DNA from: Planctomycetota bacterium
GTDB taxonomy: Bacteria; Planctomycetota; Phycisphaerae; Phycisphaerales; Phycisphaeraceae
DNA: 64,000 bases
NCBI GenBank assembly: GCA_024279865.1
Contig: JAJRRC010000109.1
Span: forward strand, 17,513 to 81,512
Reading direction: 5' to 3'
In this document: in pieces, positions 34,336 through 59,810 of the stretch
Numbering within the stretch: position 1 is the first letter of the stretch
How the letters are laid out: the number at the start of each line of letters is the position of its first letter
Program-made: the position numbers and the translations under genes
Notes under the pieces: generated by a model
The model's input: the letters and a program-made list of their open reading frames with translations, nothing else
Told to the model about the DNA's origin: nothing
Database searches by the model: none

Positions 34336-35163
34336 ATGAAACTATCCATGATGTCCTACACGATGAGCCGCCAGCCCAAGTTTTTTGATTTGGCCCAGAT
34401 GTTTGATCTGACCGCAGAGCTGAAACTTGATGGCATTGACATGGTGACCCTGCACGGCAGCACTGCCAAAGAATTGCGGAAAATGGCCGACGATCGCGCC
34501 ATTCCCGTGGTCTGTCACACTTTTATAGCGGACCTGAACTTTCCCACGACTGCCGAGCGAAGTAAAACTGTGGATGACGCTCGCCGTGGGATTGATGCGG
34601 CAGTGGAACTGGGCGCTCCGACGGTCATGATCCCCACCCCCGCCAAAGCAGGCGTGGACCGTGATGTCTCTCGCAAAAACTGGATCGCCGGTTTACAGGA
34701 GGTGATCCCTTACGCCAATGAGGCAGACATCATCTTAACGGTGGAAAATTTTCCCGGTGCGGGTAGCCCCTTCGTCATCGCCACCGATCTGCTCCAAGCG
34801 GTGCGAGAAGTGCCAGGCATGAAAATAACCTATGACAACGGCAACGCCTTCTCCGGCGAAGAACCAATCCAGTCCTTCAAGGATGTGGCGGAGCATACCG
34901 TGCATGTCCATTTCAAGGATTGGGATATCGTCGAAGAAGGCCAGGGCATGGCCATGCTTAACGGCACAACCATGGCCTCCGCCTTGATCGGCGAAGGCGA
35001 TATAGATACCAAAGGTTGTCTCAAAGCTCTGACTGATGCCAACTATGATTTCTGCATCAACCTTGAATACGAAGGCAACAAATACAATCCCACCGAAGGC
35101 GTTCGCAAAGCAACCGAATATCTTCGAAACGCCTATGCAGAATTAACCGCGACATCGGTCTGA
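34336..35163 (+). CDS. sugar phosphate isomerase/epimerase (xylose isomerase-like TIM barrel), copy 1
   Basis: 275 aa. It is a tandem paralogue of the next gene. Confidence 0.75.
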   Translation: MKLSMMSYTMSRQPKFFDLAQMFDLTAELKLDGIDMVTLHGSTAKELRKMADDRAIPVVCHTFIADLNFPTTAERSKTVDDARRGIDAAVELGAPTVMIPTPAKAGVDRDVSRKNWIAGLQEVIPYANEADIILTVENFPGAGSPFVIATDLLQAVREVPGMKITYDNGNAFSGEEPIQSFKDVAEHTVHVHFKDWDIVEEGQGMAMLNGTTMASALIGEGDIDTKGCLKALTDANYDFCINLEYEGNKYNPTEGVRKATEYLRNAYAELTATSV

Positions 35164-35193: not shown

Positions 35194-36030
35194 ATGAAAT
35201 TGTCCATGATGTCGTTTACGATGAGTTTGCAGCCGGAGTTTTTTGATCTGACGCAGATGTTTGACCTAACGTCCGAACTGAAACTCGACGGCATTGATCT
35301 GGTCACGCTTCACGAAACCCCCGCAAGCGAATTGCGGAAAATGGCGGATGATCGTGGCATTCCCATTGTGTGCCACACTTTTCGGGCGGACTTAAATTTT
35401 CCCACTGCCGCGGAACGACAGCCCGCTGTGGACCTTGCTCGTAAAAGTCTTGACGCAGCCGTCACGCTGGGCGCTCCGACGGTGATGATTCCCACGCTTC
35501 CCAAAGCAGGTGTGGATCGTGATCTATCTCGCAGAAACTGGATTGCCGGTTTACAGGAACTGATTCCCTATGCCAATGACGTGGGAGTCGCTTTAACCGT
35601 GGAAAATTTCCCCGGCGAGGGGAGCCCCTTCGTCATCGCCACTGATTTGCTCCAAGCGGTACGAGAAGTGCCAAGCATGAAAATAACCTATGACAACGGC
35701 AACGCCTTCTCTGGCGAAGAGCCAGCCCAGTCATTTAAAGATGTCGCTGAGCATACGGTGCATGCCCATTTCAAAGATTGGGATATCGTCGAAGAAGGCC
35801 AAGGCACAAAAATGCTCGACGGTCGCACCATGGCCCCCGCTCTGATCGGTGAGGGAGCCATTGATACCAAAGCCTGTCTCAAGGCTCTGGCTGATGCGGG
35901 TTATGATCGCTATATCAACATTGAATACTGTGGCAGAAAATACAATCCCACCGAAGGCGTTCGCAAAGCAACCGAATATCTACGTCGGATAAATGAAGAA
36001 CTGACAACCGCGACGCCTGTGGTGAAATAA
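35194..36030 (+). CDS. sugar phosphate isomerase/epimerase (xylose isomerase-like TIM barrel), copy 2
   Basis: 278 aa and about 70% identical to copy 1. The two copies share exact nucleotide runs of 36 nt or more. Confidence 0.75.
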   Translation: MKLSMMSFTMSLQPEFFDLTQMFDLTSELKLDGIDLVTLHETPASELRKMADDRGIPIVCHTFRADLNFPTAAERQPAVDLARKSLDAAVTLGAPTVMIPTLPKAGVDRDLSRRNWIAGLQELIPYANDVGVALTVENFPGEGSPFVIATDLLQAVREVPSMKITYDNGNAFSGEEPAQSFKDVAEHTVHAHFKDWDIVEEGQGTKMLDGRTMAPALIGEGAIDTKACLKALADAGYDRYINIEYCGRKYNPTEGVRKATEYLRRINEELTTATPVVK

Positions 36031-44722: not shown

Positions 44723-45655
44723 TTAATATCCTTTATCCCATGTGTCTTGAATATCAGCAGCGATATTCTCGGTAATATAACAGTCTGTACGAAGTATTTG
44801 GTGAATGCTAGAGGGGAGTTTGGGGGTGACTGGGCCGTGGTAGCAGAGTCGTGCGATCATGCGTTCCCAACTGACGTCGGTTCCAGCGACCCCAATAGGG
44901 GCGACTTCAATTCGGTGTCTGGCCGCGATGACTTCTTTGGGTCCGATGGTGGCCGCCTTGGGCGGGACCGCAGCAAGGTCACCGCTGAATCCCATGCTGC
45001 CATGGAGTGAATTTTGTGCAATGGTAAAAGGGCTGAGCGTGGAAATCCGAGCGCCCATGGTTTTCCACTCTTCGAGCGGTGCGTCAAATTCAGGCGCGTC
45101 AGGATCGACAAAGGCCAAATGTCCCGTCCAACCCGGCCCGGTGTAGCTGATGTCCAGTCCGCCAGCCTCTTGCATGAGGTCGTAATAATGATCGAGGTTG
45201 TCATTGTTAAGGCCGAAAACCTGGCTTCGTGGCGGGCGCAGTTCTTCGTCCACTTCACTCCACAAAAACCGAAGCATGGCATAGGTAAACCCGCGAGGCC
45301 AATCTTCTGGCGCCACGCGGCCGTCTTGGTCGGCATACTCGTCCATGGCAAACCACCACACATGCTTACATGACAGTTTGGCTCGATTAATCATGCGTGC
45401 CAAATTGCAATAGCCAGGCCAAGGGTTTGGCATCAGCATCACGCAAGGCTTACCCGCATCGCGTGCTTCTTTCATGCGCCAGAACATATCGCCGAGCCAG
45501 ATATGCACAAAGTCTTCATCTGGGACCACGCGGATTTGAAAATCGGGGTTGGGATGATTCTCTATTTCAGAGCGTTTGATTGCTCGGCAACGCGCAATTT
45601 CCGCTTTGTCACGAAAAGGAACGCAAGGGGATGGATCATAATCAAAGTGACTCAT
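44723..45655 (-). CDS. NagB/6-phosphogluconolactonase-superfamily protein (glucosamine-6-phosphate deaminase-like)
   Basis: WWFAMDEY and GPGWTGHLAFVDP resemble the NagB motifs. Confidence 0.6.
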   Translation of the reverse strand: MSHFDYDPSPCVPFRDKAEIARCRAIKRSEIENHPNPDFQIRVVPDEDFVHIWLGDMFWRMKEARDAGKPCVMLMPNPWPGYCNLARMINRAKLSCKHVWWFAMDEYADQDGRVAPEDWPRGFTYAMLRFLWSEVDEELRPPRSQVFGLNNDNLDHYYDLMQEAGGLDISYTGPGWTGHLAFVDPDAPEFDAPLEEWKTMGARISTLSPFTIAQNSLHGSMGFSGDLAAVPPKAATIGPKEVIAARHRIEVAPIGVAGTDVSWERMIARLCYHGPVTPKLPSSIHQILRTDCYITENIAADIQDTWDKGY

Positions 45656-46476
45656 GAACAGCGACCTCCAGCATGCTGTGCCTTTTTGGTAGACGAAAGC
45701 ATGATTGGGATTTTGTGGGTTTCTAATTTTTGTTTGAATAGCGAGCTGATTTTTTCATCACAAATCAGGCCGTCCCAATCCTTGAGATTGGCGTATCGGT
45801 AAAGCTCATGGCGATCGAGCTTGGTATGGTCTGCGGTGGCGTAAACGCGGGTGGCGGCATTGGCCATGCGTGCGAGCATACACCCGATTTCGGCACTGAC
45901 ATTGTAAAGATTGCCCTGGGCATCAATGGCATCCGCCCCGATGAAGGCCACGTCTGCTCGCAAGTTTTCAAGGTTGCTATCGGTAATTGCGCCCATGAGG
46001 TCGGGGGTGTTTTGTCGCAGTACCCCGCCGAGTAGTAGGACGGTGACATTTTCCTGGCCAAACAGTTCTGATGCAATGGGGAGTGAGCCGGTAATAACGG
46101 TGATATTGTTTAGAGTTTTGAGTTGGCGGGCAATGGCCAGAGTCGTCGTACTTGAATCAAGCATGACGGTATTGCCATGGGAGATTAGGCTTAGGGCGGT
46201 CTTGGCGATTTGTTTTTTTTCTTCAGCTTGCTGTCGAGCTCGTTCAAGGAATCGAAATTCAAAGCTGACACGGGTGGCGGCGGTTGCGCCGCCGTGGGTG
46301 CGAATCACTTGGCCGTCATCGGTGAGGTCTTGGAGGTCTCGGCGAATGGTCATCCCGCTGACCCCGAAGTGGTCTGCAAGCAGATCGACGGAACATTCGC
46401 CATTGGCATCGAGCCATTGGACCATTTTCGCTCGACGCGAGGCAGGACTGAGGGTTGCAAGAGGCTGTTCATTCAT
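45652..46476 (-). CDS. DeoR/GlpR-family transcriptional regulator
   Basis: N-terminal HTH (VDLLADHFGVSGMTIRRDLQDL) plus a DeoR C-terminal sensor domain. It overlaps the downstream gene by 4 nt. Confidence 0.85.
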   Translation of the reverse strand: MNEQPLATLSPASRRAKMVQWLDANGECSVDLLADHFGVSGMTIRRDLQDLTDDGQVIRTHGGATAATRVSFEFRFLERARQQAEEKKQIAKTALSLISHGNTVMLDSSTTTLAIARQLKTLNNITVITGSLPIASELFGQENVTVLLLGGVLRQNTPDLMGAITDSNLENLRADVAFIGADAIDAQGNLYNVSAEIGCMLARMANAATRVYATADHTKLDRHELYRYANLKDWDGLICDEKISSLFKQKLETHKIPIMLSSTKKAQHAGGRCS

Positions 46477-46534
46477 GTTAATATATGTTTATATTGAACA
46501 CGCAGGCTTTTGTCAACTCTTTTGAGAAGGAATC

Positions 46535-47872
46535 GTGAAAATGGCTGATTCTGTGAAACAAACCTTGATTGCGGGGGCATCAGAGGTTGATATTACGCCT
46601 GACAAATCCATGTTTCTGTTTGGCTATCCCCATGTGCAGCGGATGAGTACGGGGGTTCACGATCCACTTTTAAGCTCAGCGTTGTATTTGCACAACGGTT
46701 CGTCAGGCATTTTGTTCATCGCCCATGATTTAATTTGGGTTCCACGAGATGTTTCTGAGCGGGCACGTCAAAGGATTGTGCAAGAAGTCCCGGTCACGGC
46801 CACAGAGATCATGATTACCGCGTCTCACACCCATTCGGGACCGATTACCGTTTCGGTGCTCAGCAATGAGGCAGACCCGGTTGTTCCCAAGCCAGACCTT
46901 TCATACCTACAGATGCTCGAAGACAAGATTGTCGAAGCTGCGGTGCTGGCGTACCGCAATGCCAAGCCCGCAGAAGTGGGGCTCGCTTGCGTGGATGGCT
47001 CGATGGTGGGAACCAACCGTCGTTCGCCCGAGGATATGAGTATTCCGCAAACACCTGTCATGGCGGTGCGGGACGTGGAATCGGGATCATTGGTTAGCCT
47101 GATGGTGATTGCGAGTATGCACCCGACGGTGCTGCACGAAGACTCGACATTGATCAGTGGCGATTGGCCGGGCTTGATGCGAAGGTATTTACAGGAAGAA
47201 GTCGTTGGCGCGTCTTGCCCGATTGTTTATCACATGGGAGCTTCAGGCAACCAAAGCCCCCGACATGTGACCCAGTCCAATACCTTTGCTGAGGCAGAAC
47301 GGCTTGGCATTGCTTTGGGCAAAGCAGTGGAAGAGGCGTTGCCTGGGATGAATTATCTCAATGAGGTTGATCTAAAAAGTAAGTCCACCGCCATTGAGAT
47401 ACCTCTGCGTCGTTTCCCCAGTATTGAAGATGCCAAGAGAGCGTTCGATGCTGCACAAGCAAAATTTACAAATCTCCAAGCCTCAAATGCTCCGGCAACG
47501 GAAGTCCGAACTGCCGAGTGCGATGTTTTTGGAGCTGAAGAAACATGGACGCTCGCCAAAGCAGCCCAAGCGGGGCGATTGCAGGAGGTCGCTCAGTCCT
47601 ATTTGCCGATGGAAGTTCAGGTTGTGCAAGTTAGCGATTGGCGATTCCTTGGCTGGTCTGGTGAAGTGTTTGTTGAATTTGCTCTCCAAATCATGGCCAA
47701 CCACCCTGATACCTTTATCATCACGCTCGTCAATGGCGACATGCAAGGCTATATCGTCACCGAACAAGCGGTAGCAGAAGGGGGCTATGAAGCTTCTAAC
47801 GCGCTGTTTGAAAGCCCCGCCAGTGGTAATCTTCTGGTAAAAGCTTCTGAGCAGCTCTTGACAAATCTATAA
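46535..47872 (+). CDS. ceramidase-like amidohydrolase, paralogue 4
   Basis: ITPDKSMFLFGYP ... ITASHTHSGP. It is divergent from deoR. The start is GTG 46535 or ATG 46541. Confidence 0.65.
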   Translation: MKMADSVKQTLIAGASEVDITPDKSMFLFGYPHVQRMSTGVHDPLLSSALYLHNGSSGILFIAHDLIWVPRDVSERARQRIVQEVPVTATEIMITASHTHSGPITVSVLSNEADPVVPKPDLSYLQMLEDKIVEAAVLAYRNAKPAEVGLACVDGSMVGTNRRSPEDMSIPQTPVMAVRDVESGSLVSLMVIASMHPTVLHEDSTLISGDWPGLMRRYLQEEVVGASCPIVYHMGASGNQSPRHVTQSNTFAEAERLGIALGKAVEEALPGMNYLNEVDLKSKSTAIEIPLRRFPSIEDAKRAFDAAQAKFTNLQASNAPATEVRTAECDVFGAEETWTLAKAAQAGRLQEVAQSYLPMEVQVVQVSDWRFLGWSGEVFVEFALQIMANHPDTFIITLVNGDMQGYIVTEQAVAEGGYEASNALFESPASGNLLVKASEQLLTNL

Positions 47873-47969
47873 CTTATCATCGGCAAGGCAATTGGGTTTA
47901 TCGGACGAGTTGCAAACAGGGATGCTTTTAGGGTCAATTAAATTCCACCCATTGGCCGATATCTCCTGC

Positions 47970-48914
47970 ATGGGCTGGTTTTTGAAAAAGCCGAAAAGGG
48001 GGGCAACGAGCAAGAAGGTCACTCCTCGGTTGGCCTTATGTTCAAAGTCTAAGCCTCTGTCGAGTCGATTGCCCAGCATCAAAGCCCGTTGGAGCATGCT
48101 CGCGTGCTTGGGCCTGATGACTTTGGGGGGGCTGGGTTGGCAGTTCACCCAGAAATCTTTGGTTGCTTATGTTGCCAGACAGCACACCGAGCCACTCAAT
48201 TCACAACAAGTTCAGCTCATCGACATGCCCACATGGATGAGTCCGCTTCTACAAGCTCAATTACAGTCATTGATTGTCAGGGAATTGGCTTTAAGTCCGA
48301 TGAATGGGTCGAGTTTGGAGTCGACGGTTGATTTGTTGGCGGCAAATCCTTGGGTCGAGCAGGTCCATCGTCTTAGTCGCACGTCTGATGGCCAAATTTG
48401 GGTTGCTGCCACTTACCGTGAACCCGTTGCGATGGTTCGGTCTGCGGGAGCTTACCATTTGATTGATAATCATTGCCGAAGGCTTCCGGGACGATATTCT
48501 CAAAAACAAATGATTCAAGTGGGTTTGCCATTGATCGAGGGCGTTGGGGAGAAGCTTCCTGGGGTTGGAGAAATTTGGCGTAGCGATTCACTTCAGAGCG
48601 GCTTATCGTTGGCGCATTTGGTGGATCATCAGCCCTATACGGATCAGATCCGGGCGATTGACGTGAGCCAACGTGATCGTCGCGGGCGATTGCGGATGCA
48701 ATTGGTAACCCATCGGGGTGGCCAAGTACGCTGGGGGCGTGCTCCGGGCCGAGGCTATCCGATTGAATCAACCGATGAGGTGAAATTGCAATCCTTACAA
48801 AGCCTTTTTGAACGATGCGGCCAGATCGACGCTGGGGGGAAAAAAGTAGATGTTTTCAGCAAAACAGTCCTCATTCATCAGCCGGTGCAGGTTCAAACCG
48901 CACTGGCTCGCTAG
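47970..48914 (+). CDS. FtsQ/DivIB-like POTRA-domain membrane protein
   Basis: Basic N-terminus, one TM helix and a POTRA-like block NPWVEQVHRLSRTSDGQIWVAATYREPVAMV. Confidence 0.45.
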   Translation: MGWFLKKPKRGATSKKVTPRLALCSKSKPLSSRLPSIKARWSMLACLGLMTLGGLGWQFTQKSLVAYVARQHTEPLNSQQVQLIDMPTWMSPLLQAQLQSLIVRELALSPMNGSSLESTVDLLAANPWVEQVHRLSRTSDGQIWVAATYREPVAMVRSAGAYHLIDNHCRRLPGRYSQKQMIQVGLPLIEGVGEKLPGVGEIWRSDSLQSGLSLAHLVDHQPYTDQIRAIDVSQRDRRGRLRMQLVTHRGGQVRWGRAPGRGYPIESTDEVKLQSLQSLFERCGQIDAGGKKVDVFSKTVLIHQPVQVQTALAR

Positions 48915-48959
48915 CCTGATGGCGGGCCTTTTCGTGACTGGGGGGTATACTATCTATCC

Positions 48960-49583
48960 TTGAGTGAACCAACTTCCAACGAGCCGCCTTCGCCACGTTT
49001 TCTCGTGCTTTTGTGGTGCCTGTATTTGCTGGGCATTTGGTTGCTATCACTTCAACTGGACAATCCGCTTTGGGCGGGGCGTTGGATGTTCTGGTGTTTG
49101 TTGGCAGGATTGATTCTTTTGTGGCCTGCGTTGCGATTAAGCCAGCCGATCATGTCTCCTGCTCGCATTTGGGTTGACTGGGTTTGCTTGGCCTTTGTCT
49201 TTGAGACGGTTTGTTGGCCTTTGAAAATTATTTTAGAGTGGACGATTCCGCAGATGCTTTGGCTCAATGGGGCGGTTCTTGCCTGGAGCTTGCTGGCGGG
49301 TTTGTTTACCGCTGCGGGGGCTCGGTCGTCTTATAGCCGTCATCGGTCAGCAGCCATACTCTTGTGTGTGGGTGTACTTCTGGGGGAACCCTTACTCCAA
49401 ATCATCTTGGGGATTCCTTGGACCATGCGGGTAAGCCCGATTCAAACCGTCTGGGCTTTGCTCCAAGGCAACATCACCGCCACGATCAAAGTTCACATTC
49501 TAAGCGTCGCCATCGGCAGCTCAATCGGCTGGCTGCTACTGTGGCATCATGACTGCAAGGTCAAACGCCAACGGCCTGCGTAA
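48960..49583 (+). CDS. hypothetical polytopic membrane protein
   Basis: 207 aa with about six hydrophobic segments and a TTG start. Confidence 0.45.
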   Translation: MSEPTSNEPPSPRFLVLLWCLYLLGIWLLSLQLDNPLWAGRWMFWCLLAGLILLWPALRLSQPIMSPARIWVDWVCLAFVFETVCWPLKIILEWTIPQMLWLNGAVLAWSLLAGLFTAAGARSSYSRHRSAAILLCVGVLLGEPLLQIILGIPWTMRVSPIQTVWALLQGNITATIKVHILSVAIGSSIGWLLLWHHDCKVKRQRPA

Positions 49584-49623
49584 AGACTGGCCCCGCTGAT
49601 TCCACCTCTCTATTCTGCTTCCC

Positions 49624-49665
49624 CTCTTACTGATAGCTGACCACTGATAACTTAAAACTGATCGC
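49624..49665 (+). repeat. CTGA-rich three-frame stop cluster
   Basis: ctcttactgatagctgaccactgataacttaaaactgatcgc ends 10 nt before the mutL ATG. Confidence 0.6.
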
Positions 49666-49674
49666 TTTGTTACA

Positions 49675-51723
49675 ATGGCTCCGATGCCAATACGTAAACT
49701 CCCCTTACTTTTAATCAACCAGATCGCGGCGGGCGAAGTGATTGAACGGCCAGCCAGTGTCGTCAAAGAACTCGTTGAAAACAGTCTCGATGCCCATGGG
49801 ACCCAAATCGATATCCAAATCGAAGAAGGCGGCCGTCAACTGATCCGAATCAGCGACAACGGCACAGGCATTCCCGAAGACGAACTCCCCCTCGCCATCG
49901 ACGCTCATGCCACCAGCAAATTGCAAACCGTTGACCAGCTCGAAGCGATCAATACCATGGGCTTTCGCGGCGAAGCGATTGCGTCCATCGCCAGCATCAG
50001 CCGTTTACGTATCACCAGCAAAGCAACGCTCAACGGCATTGCCTGTGAATCCGGGGCCATGCTCGAAGTTCATGGCGGACAGATACAACCCATCACCCCC
50101 GCAGCCTGTGCGCCGGGGACCACGCTTGAAGTCCGCGACATCTTTTTTAACACCCCTGCAAGGCTTAAATTCATGCGGGCTGCCAGTACCGAGTTTGGGC
50201 ATATTTCCAGCATCATCAGCCAAATCGCAATGGTTCAACCTCAAGTTGGATTCACCTTGACCCACAACGGCCGCAAGACGCTGGATGTGAGCCCTGATAG
50301 TTCACACCGAAGGCGATGTATTCAATTGCTAGGTAAAGAGCTTGATGATGCCATGCTCGAGTTTGAGCATGTCGACCCACCCACCGAAAACGCGTCGCCG
50401 AATAGCCCCCCACCTCCGAGGTTGTGGGGTTTGGCGGGCATGCCTGCGGTCGCTCGCGCGACGACAAAATTTCAGTATGTCTTTATCAATGGCAGGCCCA
50501 TCAAAGACCGCAGTCTCAACCATGCGATCAAAGAAGCTTACCGCGGCCTCATCCCTCATGACAAACATCCCATGGCCATTCTCTGTATCGAAATCGACCC
50601 CACCACCGTGGACGTCAATGTCCATCCCACCAAATCACAAGTCCGCTTTCGTGAACCTTCACGCATGCATGGGCTAATCCTCCATTCACTGCGACAATGT
50701 TTACTTGCCAATGACCTCACCCCCCAGGCAAGCTTGGGAGGATTTAACAGAGCCGGAGCGATGACCGGCGGAGGCATTGCCGGGAGTGGAACTTCCGGGG
50801 GGGCCGGGAAAATTTCCTTCTCACGGTCGGGGGGGTCGTCAAGTTCATCGGGAACAAGCCCTTCTGCTTTTGTACAACATTTTCGGGAAATGGATGCCGC
50901 TCAAAAAGGCTTCATCTACCAACAGATCAAAGAAGCCCTCCCCCCGGTTCCCCCGGCCCCCCCGGAAGCTACCCAAGGGCTTCTCCCACAAAATGCAGCC
51001 CAGACCACCGACCCAAGCAACCCGGAGGCCTCCAACGGACCACCCTCTGAACTTCCGGGGGGGCCGGGGGCATGGGAATTGGCACAGCGAAATTCTCCAG
51101 GCGGCGCGCCGGCTCTGCCGATCCTTCAGCAATACAATATTTTGCAAGTGCACAATAGCTATCTCGTTACCCAAGACGACCAAGGGATTCTCATCATCGA
51201 CTAACATGCTCTGCATGAACGGGTCATGTTTGAACAACTCAGAAATCGCATCCTGGGCCAAAACAAAAACCTTGAAAGCCAGCGTCTGTTAATGCCTGCG
51301 ACGATGCCTGCTTCGCCTGGTCGTCTGGACCTTGCTGAGCAACTGGGTCCTCTCTTTGAGCGCATTGGGATTGAAGCTCAGCCCATTGGCAAAGAGAGCT
51401 TGGCGATTCATGCGTTCCCCACGTTGTTGTTTGACCGCAAGGTAGACCCGATTACCTTCATGGAAGAGCTTCTTGATGAAGCTGAAGATGGCAAGGTGGA
51501 TCTGACCAATCCGAATCTTGACGAAGCGGTGCTTCACAAGGTTCTGGACATGATGGCCTGCAAGGCAGCGGTCAAAGGCGGCGATGCCATGACCCAGGCG
51601 GAGCTTGCAGCCCTGCTCGCCAAGCGAGATGAGATTGAACGGTCGAGCAATTGCCCCCACGGCCGGCCCACGAGCCTGAGGTTGAGCCTTGCGGATCTTG
51701 AAAAGCAATTCATGCGAACGTAA
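49675..51723 (+). pseudogene. mutL: DNA mismatch repair endonuclease MutL interrupted by an in-frame TAA at 51202-51204
   Basis: The N-terminal GHKL ATPase is present (INQIAAGEVIERPASVVKELVENSLDA). The two ORFs 49675-51204 and 51226-51723 are in the same frame. The stop replaces Q in ILIID-*-HALHERVMFE (the DQHAX2EX4E motif). CPHGRP is retained downstream. Confidence 0.85.
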
Positions 51724-51756
51724 ACCAAGTTCGAACGCAAGCATTGGACCGGGGAA

Positions 51757-51793
51757 GAATCCGTCGCTTCAGCAGACTTCAGCATCCGGCATT
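51757..51793 (+). repeat. 37-nt dispersed repeat, copy 2
   Basis: gaatccgtcgcttcagcagacttcagcatccggcatt. Confidence 0.6.
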
Positions 51794-51912
51794 GTGATCA
51801 CAACAAGCAAACTTTCACCCCCGAGGACAAGTCTGTCTGTCTATCCATCCATCACAAACGCGATTGCTGAATTCACAAGGGTCTGACAATCATCAATCAG
51901 CAACGGATTGGT

Positions 51913-52629
51913 TTATCTGCCGTGGCGGATCACGCGGCCGTTGGTTTTTTGTAAATCACGGGCATTGTCAAAAGAAAACAAGGATTGAAAAGCCTTGATT
52001 TGCTCGGATGAAACCGTGAGGGGTTCGTCAAGAACGGTCCATAACACACCTTCGGTACAGGGTGGCATGGTCAGTGAGCCGTAGTATTGATAGCGTGTGA
52101 GGTTCGTTGGCAATAGCCTAGCGGGGTTGATTAAAACGTCCTTGGTCTGGTACTGCTTCCCTTCGGGGGGAATGCAGTTCCAGATTTTTTCCAGCTCGGC
52201 ATTGGCCTCACCTTCGACAAAAAAAACGCCTACCACCGCAAGACGACAATCGGCATGTTGATGTACCAAGTGCATTTCCAAGGGGTGACGAATACCCTTG
52301 ATCGCATGTTCACTAGGCGTATGAAAGTGGAATTGAAGAAGTTTGAACGGCTCGTGATTGAGTTGAAAGTGGCCGCCTGCATTAACCTGAATCGTGCGGC
52401 CGTTGTTGAACAAGTCCAATACAACAGGCTGATAGTCAAAAGAAATGACATCAGGTTGACCCTTTGCATGCTCATTACATAAGTCAATAGGAGATTGGTT
52501 CTGGCCTGTCTGGCCAGGCCAAGTCGAGGGTCCGGTTGGGCCGTCATAGCTCCAGCCGGGAATTTCACAGTTTGAACAACACTTACCTGCCAAGAGTGAA
52601 TTCAACATTGTGGTGTCGGTTCCTTTCAA
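51913..52629 (-). CDS. alpha-class carbonic anhydrase
   Basis: QSPIDL, LLQFHFHTPSEH and LEMHLVH provide the zinc-binding His triad context. Confidence 0.85.
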   Translation of the reverse strand: MKGTDTTMLNSLLAGKCCSNCEIPGWSYDGPTGPSTWPGQTGQNQSPIDLCNEHAKGQPDVISFDYQPVVLDLFNNGRTIQVNAGGHFQLNHEPFKLLQFHFHTPSEHAIKGIRHPLEMHLVHQHADCRLAVVGVFFVEGEANAELEKIWNCIPPEGKQYQTKDVLINPARLLPTNLTRYQYYGSLTMPPCTEGVLWTVLDEPLTVSSEQIKAFQSLFSFDNARDLQKTNGRVIRHGR

Positions 52630-52684
52630 AAAAGAGTGGTATTCCCCTGATCATATCAAAAAAGAATACTTTTATATCTTTTTG

Positions 52685-54730
52685 TTATCCATATCCCAGC
52701 CAAGCGGCTGTTTGATAAACCGTAAATGCAGCGGAGTACGCCAGCACGGTCATGTATGTAAATTGGAAGGCAGCCCATTTCCAGCTACCTGTGATGCGGC
52801 GGGTGACCACCTGTGTGGGCAAGCATTGCATCGCCAAAACATAAAAGGTCAGCAAGCTCAAGCACGTCGCGGTGGTAAAGACGACCGAGCCGTCGGCACG
52901 CTTGGATTGACGCAAACGTTCTAAAAGAGCTGCATCGTTTTCTTCAATCGCATCCTCGCCCACGCCATACACAATCGCCAAGGTGGACACGATCACTTCG
53001 CGGGCGGCAAAAGAACTGACCACGCCGATGCCGATCTGCCAATCAAATCCCAACGGCCTGACCACGGGTTCAATGGCTTTGCCCAGGCGACCCGCGACAG
53101 AATAAGCCAACGCATGACGATTGCTTAATAATTCTGCTTCATGCAAAAGCTGGTTGGAGCCTGCGATATCACCGGCTTGTGCAAGGATCGCTGCTTGGGA
53201 CTGCATCTGGACCACTTCTGCCGGTGGCGAACTTTTGGGATAGGTGGCCATGGCCCAAAGCAGAACTGAAATCATAAGAATGGTGGTCCCAGCTTTATGA
53301 ATAAATATTTTGGCGCGTTCAAGCGTTGTCAGTAAAGCGGTCCGCAAACTGGGGATTTTATAACTTGGCAGTTCCAGGATCAGCGGCTTGGGTTGGCCTG
53401 GCAAAATGGTCCGTTTAAAAACAAACGCACAAGCGAGAACTGCAAAGATACCCATACAGTAAGCTGCGGTGAATAGAAGAGCTGCTTCAAGAGGTTGCTC
53501 GCCAAACAGGAGGCCGATGACCATGGCATAGACAGGCAAACGGGCTGAGCAGGTTAACAACGGCAAGGTTAAAATGGTGATCAACCGGTCGCGTTTATCT
53601 TCAATGGCTTTGGCGGTCATGATGCCTGGGATCGCACAGGCGTGAGCAGAGAGCATGGGAACAAACGCTTTGCCTGGCAGGCCGACGTGCTGCATCAGCC
53701 GGTCCATGACAAAGGCTGCTCTGGCGAGATAGCCTGTATCTTCGAGCAATGACAGAACAAAAAACAAGATGCATATCTGAGGCAAAAAGACCAGTACCCC
53801 GCCGATGCCGCCGATGATGCCATCGACCACAAGGCTGTTCACTTCACCTTCGGGCAACCACTGACTCACCAAGGCCTGTGCATAGCCAAACCCTGCGTCA
53901 ATCAAGTCCATCGGCACACTGGACAGCGAAAAGATCAACCAAAACACGCCTAGCATAATGGTGAAAAATCCAAAGACGCCCGCAATGGGATGGGTCAGAA
54001 TTTGGTCCAGCTTTTCAGTCTGACGACCAGCCTGGACCGCATGAGAAGAAGCCAGACAGGTATCAGCCACCTGCTCAGCCCAGTCATATCGCCCCTTAAA
54101 CGGACAACTGCACCCCGCACAGGAATCTTGCAATTTCATCGGCGGCTCTGCTGTTACTTCAGCATCCTGATGCAACGTTAGATGAATCAATTGGCGAAGT
54201 TGTTCAACCCCACGACCCGTACGGGCAGAAACCGCTTCAACCGGACAGCCTAGCTCTTGAACCAAAGCATCCACATCAATCTGAATGCCAGAGGATTCAG
54301 CAAGGTCGATCATGTTCAAAGCCACGATCACAGGAACCTGCAACTGAATCACCTGACTCACCAAAAACAAATTTCGCTGTAAGTTTGTTGCATCCAGCAC
54401 CACCACCACCGCAGCAGGCTTGGCAAGACCCTTGGATTGCCCAAGAAGCACATCACGACTGACCCGCTCCTCATCGGTCGCCCCAGCCACCGAATACAAC
54501 CCAGGCAAGTCTACCAGATTCACTTCCTCGCCATCGGCAAAGGACATGATTCCTTCGGTGCGTTCAATGGTAATGCCAGGAAAATTGGCGGTCCTGGCCC
54601 GCAAACCTGTCAAACGGTTAAAAAGAGTCGTTTTGCCTGCATTGGGATTGCCAATCATTGCAATGATTGGCCGACGATCAGAAGATTGAAGAACCGGCAA
54701 GCCTATCGATCTAGACGTGGAGGTACTCAT
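52685..54730 (-). CDS. feoB: ferrous iron transporter FeoB
   Basis: G-domain GNPNAGKTTLFN followed by a polytopic C-terminal region. ATGA overlap with feoA. Confidence 0.9.
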   Translation of the reverse strand: MSTSTSRSIGLPVLQSSDRRPIIAMIGNPNAGKTTLFNRLTGLRARTANFPGITIERTEGIMSFADGEEVNLVDLPGLYSVAGATDEERVSRDVLLGQSKGLAKPAAVVVVLDATNLQRNLFLVSQVIQLQVPVIVALNMIDLAESSGIQIDVDALVQELGCPVEAVSARTGRGVEQLRQLIHLTLHQDAEVTAEPPMKLQDSCAGCSCPFKGRYDWAEQVADTCLASSHAVQAGRQTEKLDQILTHPIAGVFGFFTIMLGVFWLIFSLSSVPMDLIDAGFGYAQALVSQWLPEGEVNSLVVDGIIGGIGGVLVFLPQICILFFVLSLLEDTGYLARAAFVMDRLMQHVGLPGKAFVPMLSAHACAIPGIMTAKAIEDKRDRLITILTLPLLTCSARLPVYAMVIGLLFGEQPLEAALLFTAAYCMGIFAVLACAFVFKRTILPGQPKPLILELPSYKIPSLRTALLTTLERAKIFIHKAGTTILMISVLLWAMATYPKSSPPAEVVQMQSQAAILAQAGDIAGSNQLLHEAELLSNRHALAYSVAGRLGKAIEPVVRPLGFDWQIGIGVVSSFAAREVIVSTLAIVYGVGEDAIEENDAALLERLRQSKRADGSVVFTTATCLSLLTFYVLAMQCLPTQVVTRRITGSWKWAAFQFTYMTVLAYSAAFTVYQTAAWLGYG

Positions 54731-55038
54731 GAAACTTCTCCACCAGTCTGACAACCGGGCTTCTCACAAGGATCAACCACAATTTGCTTGGCAAGACGCC
54801 TGGCGAGTCCCAGACGAGACCCGAACACACGAATAATCAAAGGGTTACCTTGTTTGATCAACTCAATCTGACGGCCAGTGCAAAGCCCAAGAGATTTCAT
54901 GCGGTCGGCCTGAACCGGGTCCGTTTCACGAACATCAAGAATCACACCCACCTGGCCGGGACGAAGATCGCACAACGAAACTTTTGAGTCAGATTCCTGA
55001 AGAACCGTCAGAGGATTGCAATCAATAGGTTGTCCCAT
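54727..55038 (-). CDS. feoA: FeoA-family protein
   Basis: SH3-like FeoA pattern (LCDLRPGQVGVILDV ... LGLCTGRQIELI). It lies directly upstream of feoB. Confidence 0.8.
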   Translation of the reverse strand: MGQPIDCNPLTVLQESDSKVSLCDLRPGQVGVILDVRETDPVQADRMKSLGLCTGRQIELIKQGNPLIIRVFGSRLGLARRLAKQIVVDPCEKPGCQTGGEVS

Positions 55039-55226
55039 AGTCTGTCTCAATATTCCAAATGACGTTCAACACAAGGTATCCTACCTTACTTTTAATTGCG
55101 ACACAATATCAATTACGCAATGATTCCAAGTAGTATTTTTTGTTGAACCACCACCCCCATCCCAATCAAAGAACAAGCGACTTGTCGATTCTTGCTCCCT
55201 GTTTGGTCTTGTGTCACCCGCCATCA

Positions 55227-56216
55227 CTAAATTTGATAGGGCACAGATCGCATCAAGCCCGTCGCCCGCCACTTCAGCCATGCCATGGTGAGAAACGCAG
55301 CGAGGAATAAAAACACATGCACTGCCGCCATCACCCATTGCCCCGCACCAAGCATCCAGCCAGCATCGTAAAGGATCAGCCAAAGGGTCGAAATTCGTAA
55401 AAACTGATGGGCTGCCTGGCGGCGAGTCCGAAAATTCCCTGCATGTTGATACAAAAAAGCGGTGGCTCCCACGCCAAAAACCACCAATGCCGCAAACGGC
55501 CACACCCACAACTTGGGATACGCATGAAGCACCAACGTGCCACGCCAGCCCATAAACATCACCAGCAAGGTTGTCCAGAACAAGGAACCGGCCACCACTT
55601 GAGCCAATTCAAACCCATGCAGACGCGGCCGTCGCCCTTCCATCACATACGCCACCGCAGAACAAACCATCACATGCCCCATTGCCAGACACACCGGCCA
55701 AGCGTAGCCGAGCTTGGGCACTGCGATAAACATCAACATAGCCCGAATCAATGCCATGCTGATAATTCCCGTCGCAGGCAGGAACTTGCCAAACACATTA
55801 AAAAAAAGAATTGCCCCGGCCGTGAAGACACACATAAAAGTAGAATGTTCTCCTAAGAAGGTGGCTGCCCCAATCGCTCCAAGCACACTGACCAAAGCCA
55901 GCGTGATGGCGGTCGGGACCGCGATTCGCCCCGTTGATAAAGGGCGATTGGGACGAAACGCCCGGTCATGCGTCATATCTAATATATCGTTGAGGCAAAT
56001 GCCATACACACACAAACCCGTTGCGATCACCATCGTCAGCCCCATCGCAAACCAGACAGGCCACTGCATCAAATATTCATTTTGGCGATCTGCCGACTCA
56101 AGCCCAATGGATAACGCCACCACCAGCCAACTGTTGCTGATGGCTGAAATTACATACTCAGGCCGAAACAGCCTCAAAAAATCAACCATGCCAGAACGTG
56201 TCATCAGAATATTCAA
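55227..56216 (-). CDS. UbiA-family prenyltransferase-like membrane protein
   Basis: NDILDMTHDRAFRPNRPLSTGRI (NDxxDxxxD motif) in a polytopic protein. Confidence 0.6.
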   Translation of the reverse strand: MNILMTRSGMVDFLRLFRPEYVISAISNSWLVVALSIGLESADRQNEYLMQWPVWFAMGLTMVIATGLCVYGICLNDILDMTHDRAFRPNRPLSTGRIAVPTAITLALVSVLGAIGAATFLGEHSTFMCVFTAGAILFFNVFGKFLPATGIISMALIRAMLMFIAVPKLGYAWPVCLAMGHVMVCSAVAYVMEGRRPRLHGFELAQVVAGSLFWTTLLVMFMGWRGTLVLHAYPKLWVWPFAALVVFGVGATAFLYQHAGNFRTRRQAAHQFLRISTLWLILYDAGWMLGAGQWVMAAVHVFLFLAAFLTMAWLKWRATGLMRSVPYQI

Positions 56217-56315
56217 TCATACCCACTTAAGCGCATGCTGAAAACCAGAGCCATTTTCCACACACACAAAATGAACTTCTAGCCCGCCATCTGCGTACAA
56301 CCAATAGATTAACCC

Positions 56316-56990
56316 ATGAATCAAGTGAGAAACATCATGCAAAAAGCATTCTACTGTACCCTGCTCATTTCCATTGGCCTTCTAGGAGCCTGCGATCCGT
56401 TCAACAACAATCAAGCCAGCACCTCCTCGACAGCAGGCTCTATCGCCGTGGTAAACCTTGAGCAAGTCGCCCAAGCCATTGGCCAAAACAAGCTATTCGA
56501 ACAAAAAATGCAAGAAGTTCAAGAGCAAACCACCAAACAACTTGACGCTCTCAAACAACAATTCAATCAACAAATCCAAGAAAAGCAAAAGAGTTTGGGC
56601 GAAAAACCCACGCCTGCCCAGCGTCAAGAATTGATCAATCTGTCCACTCAATTGCAACAACAGTATCGCCAGGGCCTTGCTCAGGCACAAGAGCTCCAAG
56701 GCCGCACGCAAGTCAATCTCATTGGTGAATTCCGACGTAAAATTAAACCCGTCGCACAAAAAATCGCACAAGACCAAGGCTATACCGTGGTCCTGATTCG
56801 CAGTGAAGTGATCCTCGTGGCCATCCCCGCTGTAGACATCACCACACAAGTCATCGCACAACTCCAACAAGTTCACACCAGCGAGAAAAGCCCTCTAAAC
56901 TTCGGCCAATCCCTCCTCGGAACCCCCACCCCCGGAAGTGCCCCCGAAAGCGCCCCCGCGGTTCCTACCACCGCACCGGCTGTCCAGTGA
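56316..56990 (+). CDS. OmpH/Skp-like periplasmic chaperone (lipoprotein)
   Basis: Lipobox LLGAC, a Gln-rich coiled coil and QGYTVVLIRS ... DITTQVI, which is a typical OmpH-family end. Confidence 0.65.
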   Translation: MNQVRNIMQKAFYCTLLISIGLLGACDPFNNNQASTSSTAGSIAVVNLEQVAQAIGQNKLFEQKMQEVQEQTTKQLDALKQQFNQQIQEKQKSLGEKPTPAQRQELINLSTQLQQQYRQGLAQAQELQGRTQVNLIGEFRRKIKPVAQKIAQDQGYTVVLIRSEVILVAIPAVDITTQVIAQLQQVHTSEKSPLNFGQSLLGTPTPGSAPESAPAVPTTAPAVQ

Positions 56991-57065
56991 CCCCTCACTT
57001 TGGTTCATAAAGCGATGAGCCTACTAGAACACTTCGCACAAATAATCTCCTGTCCGATTCAAAAA

Positions 57066-57104
57066 CCGGACGCGCAAGCTGTAAGCTTGCGTCTATTTTT
57101 AAAC
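57066..57104 (+). repeat. REP/terminator-like hairpin element, copy R7
   Basis: ccggacgcgcaagc-tgtaa-gcttgcgtctatttttaaac lies 76 nt after the skp-like stop. Confidence 0.8.
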
Positions 57105-57195
57105 AACAAGTGGAGATGACTCATGCGAAATGCCCTAGAACGCTGTCCGTTCTGATTTGGTGACTATCTCACCCCACCACCACAAGCCACACGCT

Positions 57196-58725
57196 CTAAG
57201 CATGAGCAATGCGTGGCTGACGGGTAGGCTCGCGGCATAATTCCGCATTGATAAACTGATGCAAAAGCGTGGCCTTGATTGATGCGAATTCCGGATCATC
57301 CCAGTGATTGATCATTTCATCCGGATCGTTTTTCAGATCGTACAATTCGCCATAGGGCTGATCTCGGTAGACCGTCATTTTATATTGCTCGGTAATAAAG
57401 GTTCGTAGATGAAACTCGGTGGGCTGATGACGATGCTCGCAGATTATGTTGTTGCGTGCCTGTTCAGAATCACCACGCCACACATCTAATTGATCCACGC
57501 CTTGCATTTGGCCAGGAATCTTAATTCCCGCAGCACGAAGAAATGTTGAGGGCAAATCGATCAATCCCTGCATGGCTTGATTGGTCACCCCCGCAGGAAT
57601 TTGGCCAGGCCAACGAACAAGAAACGGTAAACGCAAGAGGTCTTCATACAAATGGCACGCCTTCTGCCACAAGCCATGTTGGCCGAGGAAGTGGCCATGG
57701 TCTGTGGTAAAGACCACGATGGTGTTGTCGGCGAGTCCTTGTTCGTCTAGTGCATCGAGAATACGGCCGATTTGTTGGTCCATGAAACTAACCATGCCGT
57801 AGTAGACCGCCATGTTTTTACGAGCCTGGTCTGGATCGGTGACCTGATAGTTTAGGCCGTGATTGGCGAAGGGAGTTTCTTGATAGACAGACCAGTCGGC
57901 ATTGGGGTCTTGGGTCATTGCAAAATGCGGGGGTTTATCGTCAAATTCACCTAGCTGGTGCTGGCCGATTTGCATCTCCTTTGGATCGTACATGTCTGAC
58001 CAAGGCGAGGGAACCAAGTAAGGCGGGTGTGGATCGTGAAAACTCGACCAACAGAAAAACGGTTGATCGCTGTCAGCCGCTTGCTTGATTGATTCAATGG
58101 TTTTCTCGGCAGTCCAGACGTTGTAGTGATACTCCTCGGGCAAATCCCAACGATGTTCACGCTGAGGAGCCTCTGGATTCGGCGGATAGTCCTGGAAATA
58201 ATCCTGCCACTGGGTCAATCCCTTTTCTTCCATCCACAAAGCGTAATGCCCACCCACATGGGCTTCATCTGTGTGCATACGAGCTGTTTCGATATGGTCA
58301 AAGCCATACCAAGGGCCATGAAAATCTCGCCAAAAGTCCAAGTCTCGCAACGTGGGCTGACTTTCAATCGAAGGGGCTTCTTCGCGTGAAACCAATGGTT
58401 GAAAATGTGCTTTGCCGACCAAGGATGTTGCATAGCCTTGCTTGGAAAAGGATTCCCCCACCGTCGGTACATCCTCTGGCAACTTCATCCCAATCGTCCA
58501 ACAACCATGCCAAGATGGATATTGACCGGTAATCATCGTCGCCCGCGAGGGACTGCACACCGGGTTGTTGCAATAGGCCCGCGTGAAGTGGGTTCCTTCA
58601 CGGCCAAGGCGATCCAACGCGGGCGTTTGAATCCGTGGATTGGCAAAGCCCAGCGTGCTGTAGTGTTGTTGGTCTGAAGTAATCAGTAATATATTCGGCC
58701 GCGATGGCGAGGAGGAATTTTTCAT
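57196..58725 (-). CDS. sulfatase
   Basis: NILLITSDQQH, CSPSRATMITGQYP and TDHGHFLGQHG. The start is set at MKNSSSPSRPN, because the longer ORF would overlap the upstream ABC gene. Confidence 0.9.
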   Translation of the reverse strand: MKNSSSPSRPNILLITSDQQHYSTLGFANPRIQTPALDRLGREGTHFTRAYCNNPVCSPSRATMITGQYPSWHGCWTIGMKLPEDVPTVGESFSKQGYATSLVGKAHFQPLVSREEAPSIESQPTLRDLDFWRDFHGPWYGFDHIETARMHTDEAHVGGHYALWMEEKGLTQWQDYFQDYPPNPEAPQREHRWDLPEEYHYNVWTAEKTIESIKQAADSDQPFFCWSSFHDPHPPYLVPSPWSDMYDPKEMQIGQHQLGEFDDKPPHFAMTQDPNADWSVYQETPFANHGLNYQVTDPDQARKNMAVYYGMVSFMDQQIGRILDALDEQGLADNTIVVFTTDHGHFLGQHGLWQKACHLYEDLLRLPFLVRWPGQIPAGVTNQAMQGLIDLPSTFLRAAGIKIPGQMQGVDQLDVWRGDSEQARNNIICEHRHQPTEFHLRTFITEQYKMTVYRDQPYGELYDLKNDPDEMINHWDDPEFASIKATLLHQFINAELCREPTRQPRIAHA

Positions 58726-58763
58726 AATCCCTTCATCGTAATTTATTTGCAGTAAATGGCAAA

Positions 58764-59810
58764 TTAAGCCGTCGTCGAGACAGGCGGGATATCCGCAAGC
58801 GAGGCGTTCCCTTGATCGCAGCCCGTTCCATGCCAGCAGGCTGCCCAATGACGTGGGAAAACCTCTTGCAACGGTGGAACCGCTTGGGCGCATTGCACAT
58901 CTTCTTGCCAATCTCGACAGCGTGGATGAAACGGACAACCCGACGGCAAATTGCCCGGGTCTGGAACGTTCCCTTCAATGGTACGCAAGCGGTGTTTTTC
59001 TTCACCTAGCCGTGGCATCGAATCGAACAAGCCTCGCGTGTAGGGATGTTGCGGCCGATCAAAAACATCATGCACCGAGCCATACTCCACCACGCGGCCG
59101 GCATACATCACCGCCACCACATCAGCGTTCTGAGCCACCACACCCAGGTCATGTGTAATGAGCATGATCGACATGCCTCGCTTGATTTGTAACTCACGCA
59201 ACAGTTCTAAAATTTGTGCTTGGATCGTCACGTCCAACGCAGTGGTCGGTTCATCAGCAAGCAATAATTTAGGTTGGCACGCCAAAGCCATCGCGATCAT
59301 GACCCGTTGGCGCATGCCGCCGGACAGTTGATGGGGATAGGTTTTAAGTCTACTACGTGCGTCGGCAATGCCGACATCTTCCAACGCGGTCACGGCAATT
59401 TCAATCGCCTGGGCTCGCCCCACTGCCTGATGCAAAAGAATCGCTTCGAGAATTTGCTCACCCACGGTGTAAACGGGGTTGAGGCTTGTCATGGGTTCTT
59501 GAAAGATCATGGCAATATCGTTGCCACGGATCGACTGCATTTGTTTTTCAGTCTGGGTCAGCAGATCCACGGGCGGTTCACCCTTGGCGGACCACCAGAT
59601 TTTGCCTCGTTCATAACAGCCCGGCGGCGTGGGGACCAACTGCAATGTCGACAACGCGGACACACTCTTGCCACACCCTGATTCCCCCACCACGCCAAGC
59701 GTTTGGCCCGGATAGATCGATAGATGAACGCCATTGACAGCCTTGACCACGCCACTGGGCGTATCAAAATTCACCGCCAGATCTTCAATTCGTAACAGAG
59801 GTTCGGTCAA
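58764..59810 (-). CDS. Opp/Dpp-type ABC transporter ATP-binding protein
   Basis: [28 protein letters not shown] and a C-terminal oligopeptide-ABC extension with Cys residues. Confidence 0.85.

Follow-up and report, generated by a model that had tools for sequence, protein, structure and literature searches.

Hypermutable Pseudomonas aeruginosa were reportedly described by Oliver et al. in 2000. Mutator alleles of the LTEE in Escherichia coli include mutS Q606* and mutL (TGGCGC)n (PMC7523724), and mismatch-repair (MMR)-deficient lines of P. aeruginosa showed 98.8% transitions together with a 230-fold rise in homopolymer indels (PMC4702332). The locus described here, a planctomycete mutL gene with an in-frame TAA, resembles these mutator alleles in being a single MMR-gene lesion in an otherwise healthy genome; like mutS Q606* it is a nonsense change at a Gln codon, a lesion for which same-site reversion is possible. 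In contrast to the LTEE and P. aeruginosa mutators, the organism is uncultured, the allele is known from one assembly, and the genome shows neither a transition excess nor homopolymer indels.

The closest structurally described counterparts of the interrupted domain are the MutL proteins of Neisseria gonorrhoeae (NgoL; 3NCV, 8e-24) and Bacillus subtilis (3GAB/3KDK, 2e-21), to which the C-terminal 207 residues align. The C-terminal domain of B. subtilis MutL (3GAB/3KDG/3KDK) and NgoL have in common with the locus the endonuclease motif D-x-HA(X)2E(X)4E, the AC(R/K) and CPHGRP motifs, and the clamp-binding motif. The His and Glu residues of the endonuclease motif are zinc ligands, and its Asp is essential for nicking (PMC10366529, PMC2965676). 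The second residue varies: B. subtilis has Gln there, whereas N. gonorrhoeae MutL, which is active in nicking, has Met (DMHAAAERVNYE), with its side chain facing the protein interior (PMC2965676); in the present gene the residue is replaced by a stop, and in its nearest relative by His. Residue 510 is structural and not a metal ligand; the initial annotation, which had called the motif metal-binding, was right about the motif as a whole but not about the Gln itself.

The interrupted mutL gene

The window, the whole stretch of 64,000 nucleotides that was analyzed, corresponds to C14:17513-81512 of a 3.42-Mb assembly of 122 contigs that is 95.7% complete, and was placed in the Phycisphaeraceae (Planctomycetota) by its named homologs; no other species of the same genus occurred among the genomes searched. 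Outside mutL, the window consists of long, densely packed open frames, among them two tandem paralogous AP_endonuc_2 (xylose-isomerase-like TIM barrel) genes at 34336-35163 and 35194-36030 with about 79% DNA identity, both also found in the corresponding contig of the nearest relative. The gene for the MutL partner, mutS, is intact, with 925 codons and no stop.

The mutL frame opens with the ATG at 49675, continues in one frame throughout to its natural terminator, and contains a sole internal stop, which replaces Gln510 in a gene that would otherwise comprise 682 codons (Table 1). Positions 51196-51231 comprise the codons atc gac TAA cat gct ctg cat gaa cgg gtc atg ttt gaa, or I D (stop) H A L H E R V M F E; all motif residues are present (D509, H511, A, L, H, E515, R, V, M, F, E520) except the Gln.

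Table 1. Features of the interrupted mutL locus, in window coordinates.
Feature	Position	Strand	Remarks
mutL upstream piece, codons 1-509	49675..51201	+	ATPase, transducer, linker, motif Asp; product if TAA terminates
Endonuclease motif D-(stop)-H-A-L-H-E-R-V-M-F-E	51199..51234	+	codons 509-520; consensus DQHA(X)2E(X)4E
Premature TAA, codon 510	51202..51204	+	relatives CAA/CAG (Gln); sister assembly CAC (His)
mutL downstream piece, codons 511-682	51205..51720	+	same frame; remaining dimerisation/endonuclease domain
Possible restart ORF	51226..51723	+	ATG = codon 518, 165 aa
Clamp-binding QRLLMP	51280-51297	+	mutL downstream piece
ACK motif	51556-51564	+	mutL downstream piece
CPHGRP motif	51652-51669	+	mutL downstream piece
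Natural mutL terminator, TAA	51721..51723	+	same ending in the sister's gene

This reading bears out what had been noted at the outset, that the TAA falls exactly on the motif Gln, that the pieces on either side lie in one frame and are otherwise intact, and that the GHKL ATPase, the CPHGRP motif and the C-terminal end are all there. The 509-residue upstream piece matches HATPase_c_3, HATPase_c and DNA_mis_repair (PF01119, 3.7e-32), and comprises in order the GHKL ATPase, the DNA_mis_repair transducer, a Pro/Gly/Ser-rich linker, the first strands of the C-terminal domain and the motif Asp; GHKL motifs I-III are intact (ELVENSLDA at residue 32, DNGTGI at 61, GFRGEA at 96). The 172-residue downstream piece matches MutL_C (PF08676, 1.7e-20) and carries QRLLMP at residue 536, ACK at 628 and CPHGRP at 660, motifs present in all 119 homologs checked. 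In a model search the PF08676 match spanned the stop at 105 bits and was the only one in the whole genome; a second mutL copy could lie in the missing roughly 4%. The gene accordingly has the GHKL ATPase, transducer and MutL_C domains and the AC(R/K), C(P/N)HGRP and beta-clamp-binding QxxLxP motifs of the MutH-independent MutL endonuclease family, and lacks an uninterrupted DQHA(X)2E(X)4E in one polypeptide, the stop standing at position 2; the gene is a member of the family by descent, and its encoded product is not. The protein collection holds the 509-residue product (P0003), and the 165-residue restart product is called separately in the public record (P0123).

In alignments with seven related genomes, the counterpart of the interrupted codon is CAA or CAG. 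With the nearest relative left out, Gln occupies position 510 in 118/118 full-length and 120/120 fragmentary Planctomycetota homologs. The TAA therefore genuinely interrupts a conserved gene, at a residue that is strictly conserved, and is not a chance boundary of open frames.

Several features of the gene and its homologs were noted in passing. Within the linker (50940-50963), runs of C6, C5 and C7 encode PPVPPAPP; similar tracts (25-54 nt, 80-100% identical, most of them 25-30 nt at 90-100% identity) recur about 14 times elsewhere in the genome, on no fewer than 10 other contigs. At 51475-51495, the MutL segment LAIHAFP has His in 49, Gln in 35 and Arg in 2 of the 86 among 119 homologs that match a crude pattern; the MutL proteins of N. 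gonorrhoeae (LAVRAAP) and B. subtilis (YIVRCHP) have Arg where the window clade has His or Gln, and the active-site surroundings of this clade may differ from those of the solved MutL structures. C-terminal MutL pieces of 179-273 residues, all carrying the motif with Gln, were found on 33-538 kb contigs in other Planctomycetota assemblies (P0134, P0151, P0156, P0148; P0148 and P0156 are labeled "partial"); these may stem from contig ends or represent additional mutL genes with interruptions.

Termination at TAA is ordinary in this genome. Of 2556 stop-to-stop frames with 200 codons or more, 1245 (49%) close with TAA, which makes it the most frequent terminator; mutL itself closes with it too. 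Its share among adjacent same-frame open segments split by one stop (159/349, or 46%) shows no excess; these 349 genome-wide pairs mix broken genes with neighboring genes and were used only for stop-codon shares. An ARAGORN search of the genome returned 44 tRNAs and a tmRNA, and no stop-reading anticodon among the tRNAs; the RNA 3' of the stop folds no better than shuffled sequences (z=0.47). The possible restart product is devoid of D509, H511 and E515, two of which are zinc ligands, and no Shine-Dalgarno-like sequence is visible upstream of its ATG; as had been anticipated, translation could restart there only with loss of the motif residues, and from its sequence the restart piece could not be expected to form the metal site.

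Comparison with a near-identical genome

At 90% identity, the truncated product falls in a cluster of three: the 509- and 165-residue products of the window and the 682-residue P0124 of a sister genome, GCA_024275395.1. P0124 is identical to the read-through translation of the window gene at 681 of 682 positions, the sole difference being His at codon 510, which is CAC in the sister (L010:6107-6109, contig JAJRZF010000119.1) and gives DHHALHERVMFE. This His is the only non-Gln sense allele observed, against Gln in 238/238 other Planctomycetota homologs. At the DNA level, three bases distinguish the two mutL genes, a synonymous one at 49854 and a pair within codon 510 (TAA vs. CAC), and codons 511-682 encode the same protein sequence in both. 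The sister was compared on three contigs (L010; L012 + L013, covering window 8673-37573; and L014, adjoining mutS), and SNPs were tallied from collinear alignments only, with cross-matches between tandem paralogs excluded. L010 shows 12 mismatches against window 45096-58848, without gaps, the final 149 mutS codons are the same in both assemblies, and over 46,660 bases there are 22 substitutions and no indels (99.95% identity); within the window part, codon 510 aside, 12 SNPs are synonymous, 5 missense and 1 intergenic.

Since any error in either of these two independent assemblies would appear as a difference, both are accurate per base; neither can exceed about 5e-4 errors per base, a ceiling reached only by counting all differences as errors. 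The window lies on a contig of 84 kb, compared with 4-29 kb for the sister contigs, which suggests good coverage. No further record of the locus emerged from exact-pattern scans of metagenome and genome contigs, run first with a free base at codon position 1 and then with all three bases free, and no protein above 65% identity turned up in a fragment-sized search; by these scans and this search, public data hold only two assemblies of the species. The closest MutL in the collection searched, the sister copy aside, is 63% identical. The comparison with a sister strain that the initial annotation had proposed thus shows that the only near-identical genome has an open frame, with CAC, and that the stop is not common to both; the stop is private to the window assembly and younger than the 0.05% divergence.

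The differences between the two genomes also bear on the mutational footprint of MMR loss. The ratio of transitions to transversions is 12:10 (55% transitions; 46.7 kb). For the 20 SNPs of the window part, the probability of 11 or fewer transitions is 8e-13 under a 98.8%-transition spectrum, 0.004 if half of the SNPs arose under MMR deficiency, and 0.049 if a quarter did. None of the 73 homopolymers of at least 6 nt in the 42.65 kb compared within the window differs from the sister; eight of them lie inside mutL. With the SNPs unpolarised, there is neither a transition excess nor an excess of 1-bp G:C homopolymer indels. In these alignments, the divergence carries no MMR-deficient footprint, and the spectrum of transition bias and homopolymer indels that had been expected of a mutator did not materialize; a very short mutator phase would be compatible with the unpolarised SNPs. 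As a rough inference, and with a rate of about 2e-8 per base per generation taken over from P. aeruginosa (PMC4702332), the time without repair would not exceed a few thousand generations. The missing footprint fits a very young allele, and equally well an artefact.

Two observations on the same data are recorded separately. Among the 22 differences (window 8673-58848 and G000:C59:34660-38665 vs. the sister), 10 are transversions, and six of these are G:C<->T:A, a class tied to oxidative (8-oxoG) damage, in numbers that are too small, and too unpolarised, for interpretation. The eight mutL homopolymers would be prime slippage sites if repair were lost; all are in frame and the same in the sister.

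Candidate origins of the codon 510 alleles

The reading that we prefer, with a probability of about 0.58, is that of a real, very young and private null (mutator) allele of mutL, and not of recoding or a functional split gene. A single C-to-T transition at 51202 would have converted CAA (Gln510) to TAA, in the window lineage, in an otherwise canonical mutL of the endonuclease type; this origin of the stop had been proposed from the sequence at the outset, and the CAA and CAG codons of the relatives agree with it. Translation would end after residue 509, retaining the ATPase and linker and losing the dimerisation/endonuclease domain. [quoted passage not shown] The allele would be private, and probably transient, in a natural Phycisphaeraceae population, and the sister's His would represent a second, independent change from CAA. 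The change is considered very young because the remainder of mutL and mutS is undamaged, the sister frame is open and a mutator signature is missing. Of the earlier proposal of a very recent inactivation giving a hypermutator lineage, the very recent inactivation thus stands as the best reading, and the hypermutator lineage is not supported by the 12:10 ratio and the unchanged homopolymers.

Neither assembly has the Gln codon of the family at position 510. A single substitution in an ancestral CAA suffices for either allele (TAA by C to T, CAC by A to C), and two independent hits are the most parsimonious history, retained here as the default. Two of the 20 SNPs in 42,654 bp of the window fall in this codon, and no other two lie within 2 bp of each other; with 20 SNPs placed at random, a pair that close would arise with a probability of about 0.017, and the prior for a second independent hit in the same invariant codon is roughly 3e-4. 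The coincidence is improbable for independent random hits, and hints at something specific to the site that is not understood; the alternative histories are no more likely than independent hits. A templated mutation at a quasi-palindrome was considered by eye and rejected: AACATG (51203-51208) pairs with CATGTT (51225-51230), which would give A at 51202, and not T or C.

The alternative that retains most weight, although we consider it unlikely, is that TAA is not the genotype of the organism and that its MutL works; the stop would be a consensus or assembly error, or a minority variant fixed by the assembler at a polymorphic codon. The lesion resembles single-base consensus errors of MAGs in being a one-base lesion in one record, located in an essential-looking gene without downstream decay; the assembly of 122 contigs looks metagenome-derived, the mutator footprint is wholly absent, and the sister's different codon at this position points to local heterogeneity. 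An error at this site in one assembly would have a prior similar to that of the second independent hit. Yet consensus errors in MAGs are mostly homopolymer indels, whereas this lesion is a substitution outside any homopolymer, and the 22 differences in 46,660 bases, with no indels, show that random substitution errors are rare. The prior for a random error that hits codon 510 and makes a stop is below about 1e-3, and a random error creating exactly this stop is unlikely. Moreover, variants 2 bp apart would be linked in any k-mer or read, so that in a de Bruijn assembly TAA should not be a chimera of two haplotypes.

Alternatively, CAC could be ancestral, as a tolerated Gln-to-His change, and a single multi-nucleotide mutation from CAC to TAA could then have produced the same null allele. 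One event would account for both differences, and His at a structural position that is no metal ligand, and that is Met in an active homolog, is conceivable; but the Gln of 238/238 other Planctomycetota homologs makes a neutral Gln-to-His change unlikely a priori, and no stop lies one step from CAC. Multi-nucleotide events constitute a small share of mutations, and no other SNP pair within 2 bp occurs in 42.7 kb. This history is regarded as improbable.

Improbable to a slightly greater degree is the notion that codon 510 acts as a recurrently selected switch, with Gln-to-stop changes turning repair off and His pseudo-reversion turning it on, or with both alleles as independently selected modulators of repair. 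Slightly more improbable still is a related history in which TAA was ancestral to both assemblies, with repair off, and the CAC of the sister is a selected pseudo-revertant, making the codon an on/off site for mutation rate. Selection that reopens a stop must strike that very codon, which would place two of 20 SNPs there; mutL mutator alleles revert at the same site in LTEE population Ara-2 (PMC7523724), and the Met of N. gonorrhoeae MutL shows that non-Gln residues are tolerated at the position in an active enzyme. Against this, TAA to CAC takes two substitutions, including a transversion, when one transition (TAA to CAA) is enough to restore the wild type; an ancestral TAA also predicts transition-dominated divergence and homopolymer indels, neither of which is seen (P=0.004 with half of the SNPs).

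Finally, the view that the TAA is bypassed or harmless, being read as Gln through reassignment or programmed read-through, or separating two pieces that form a working MutL as the initial annotation had thought less likely, is close to refuted: both mutL halves are undamaged and in one frame, an in-frame ATG follows 8 codons downstream, and Gln can, very infrequently, be inserted at UAA by near-cognate read-through, but recoding, programmed read-through and a functional split MutL are rejected because of the terminator usage, the tRNA complement, the RNA folding and the Asp509, His511 and Glu515 missing from the restart piece, and the sister has an ordinary sense codon at 510.

Significance of the mutL stop

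The event belongs to a well-known class, the MMR-gene null allele, to which clinical P. aeruginosa mutators also belong, and the lesion is of an ordinary kind; the only unusual element is the double hit on an invariant codon. As a caveat for similar cases, a stop codon in a repair gene does not by itself justify the label of hypermutator; the expected footprint is absent here. To our knowledge, mutation-rate variation in planctomycetes has not been studied. If the codon were indeed a selected switch, the two genomes would capture, directly in sequence, the cycling of mutation rate in an uncultured bacterium from the environment. If the preferred reading of a young private null allele is real, the window captures a null allele of mismatch repair in nature, by rough estimate no more than a few thousand generations after it arose, in an uncultured planctomycete. 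Two non-Gln alleles at an invariant codon, in genomes that are 99.95% identical, would then constitute a natural experiment on the importance of the second residue of the endonuclease motif.
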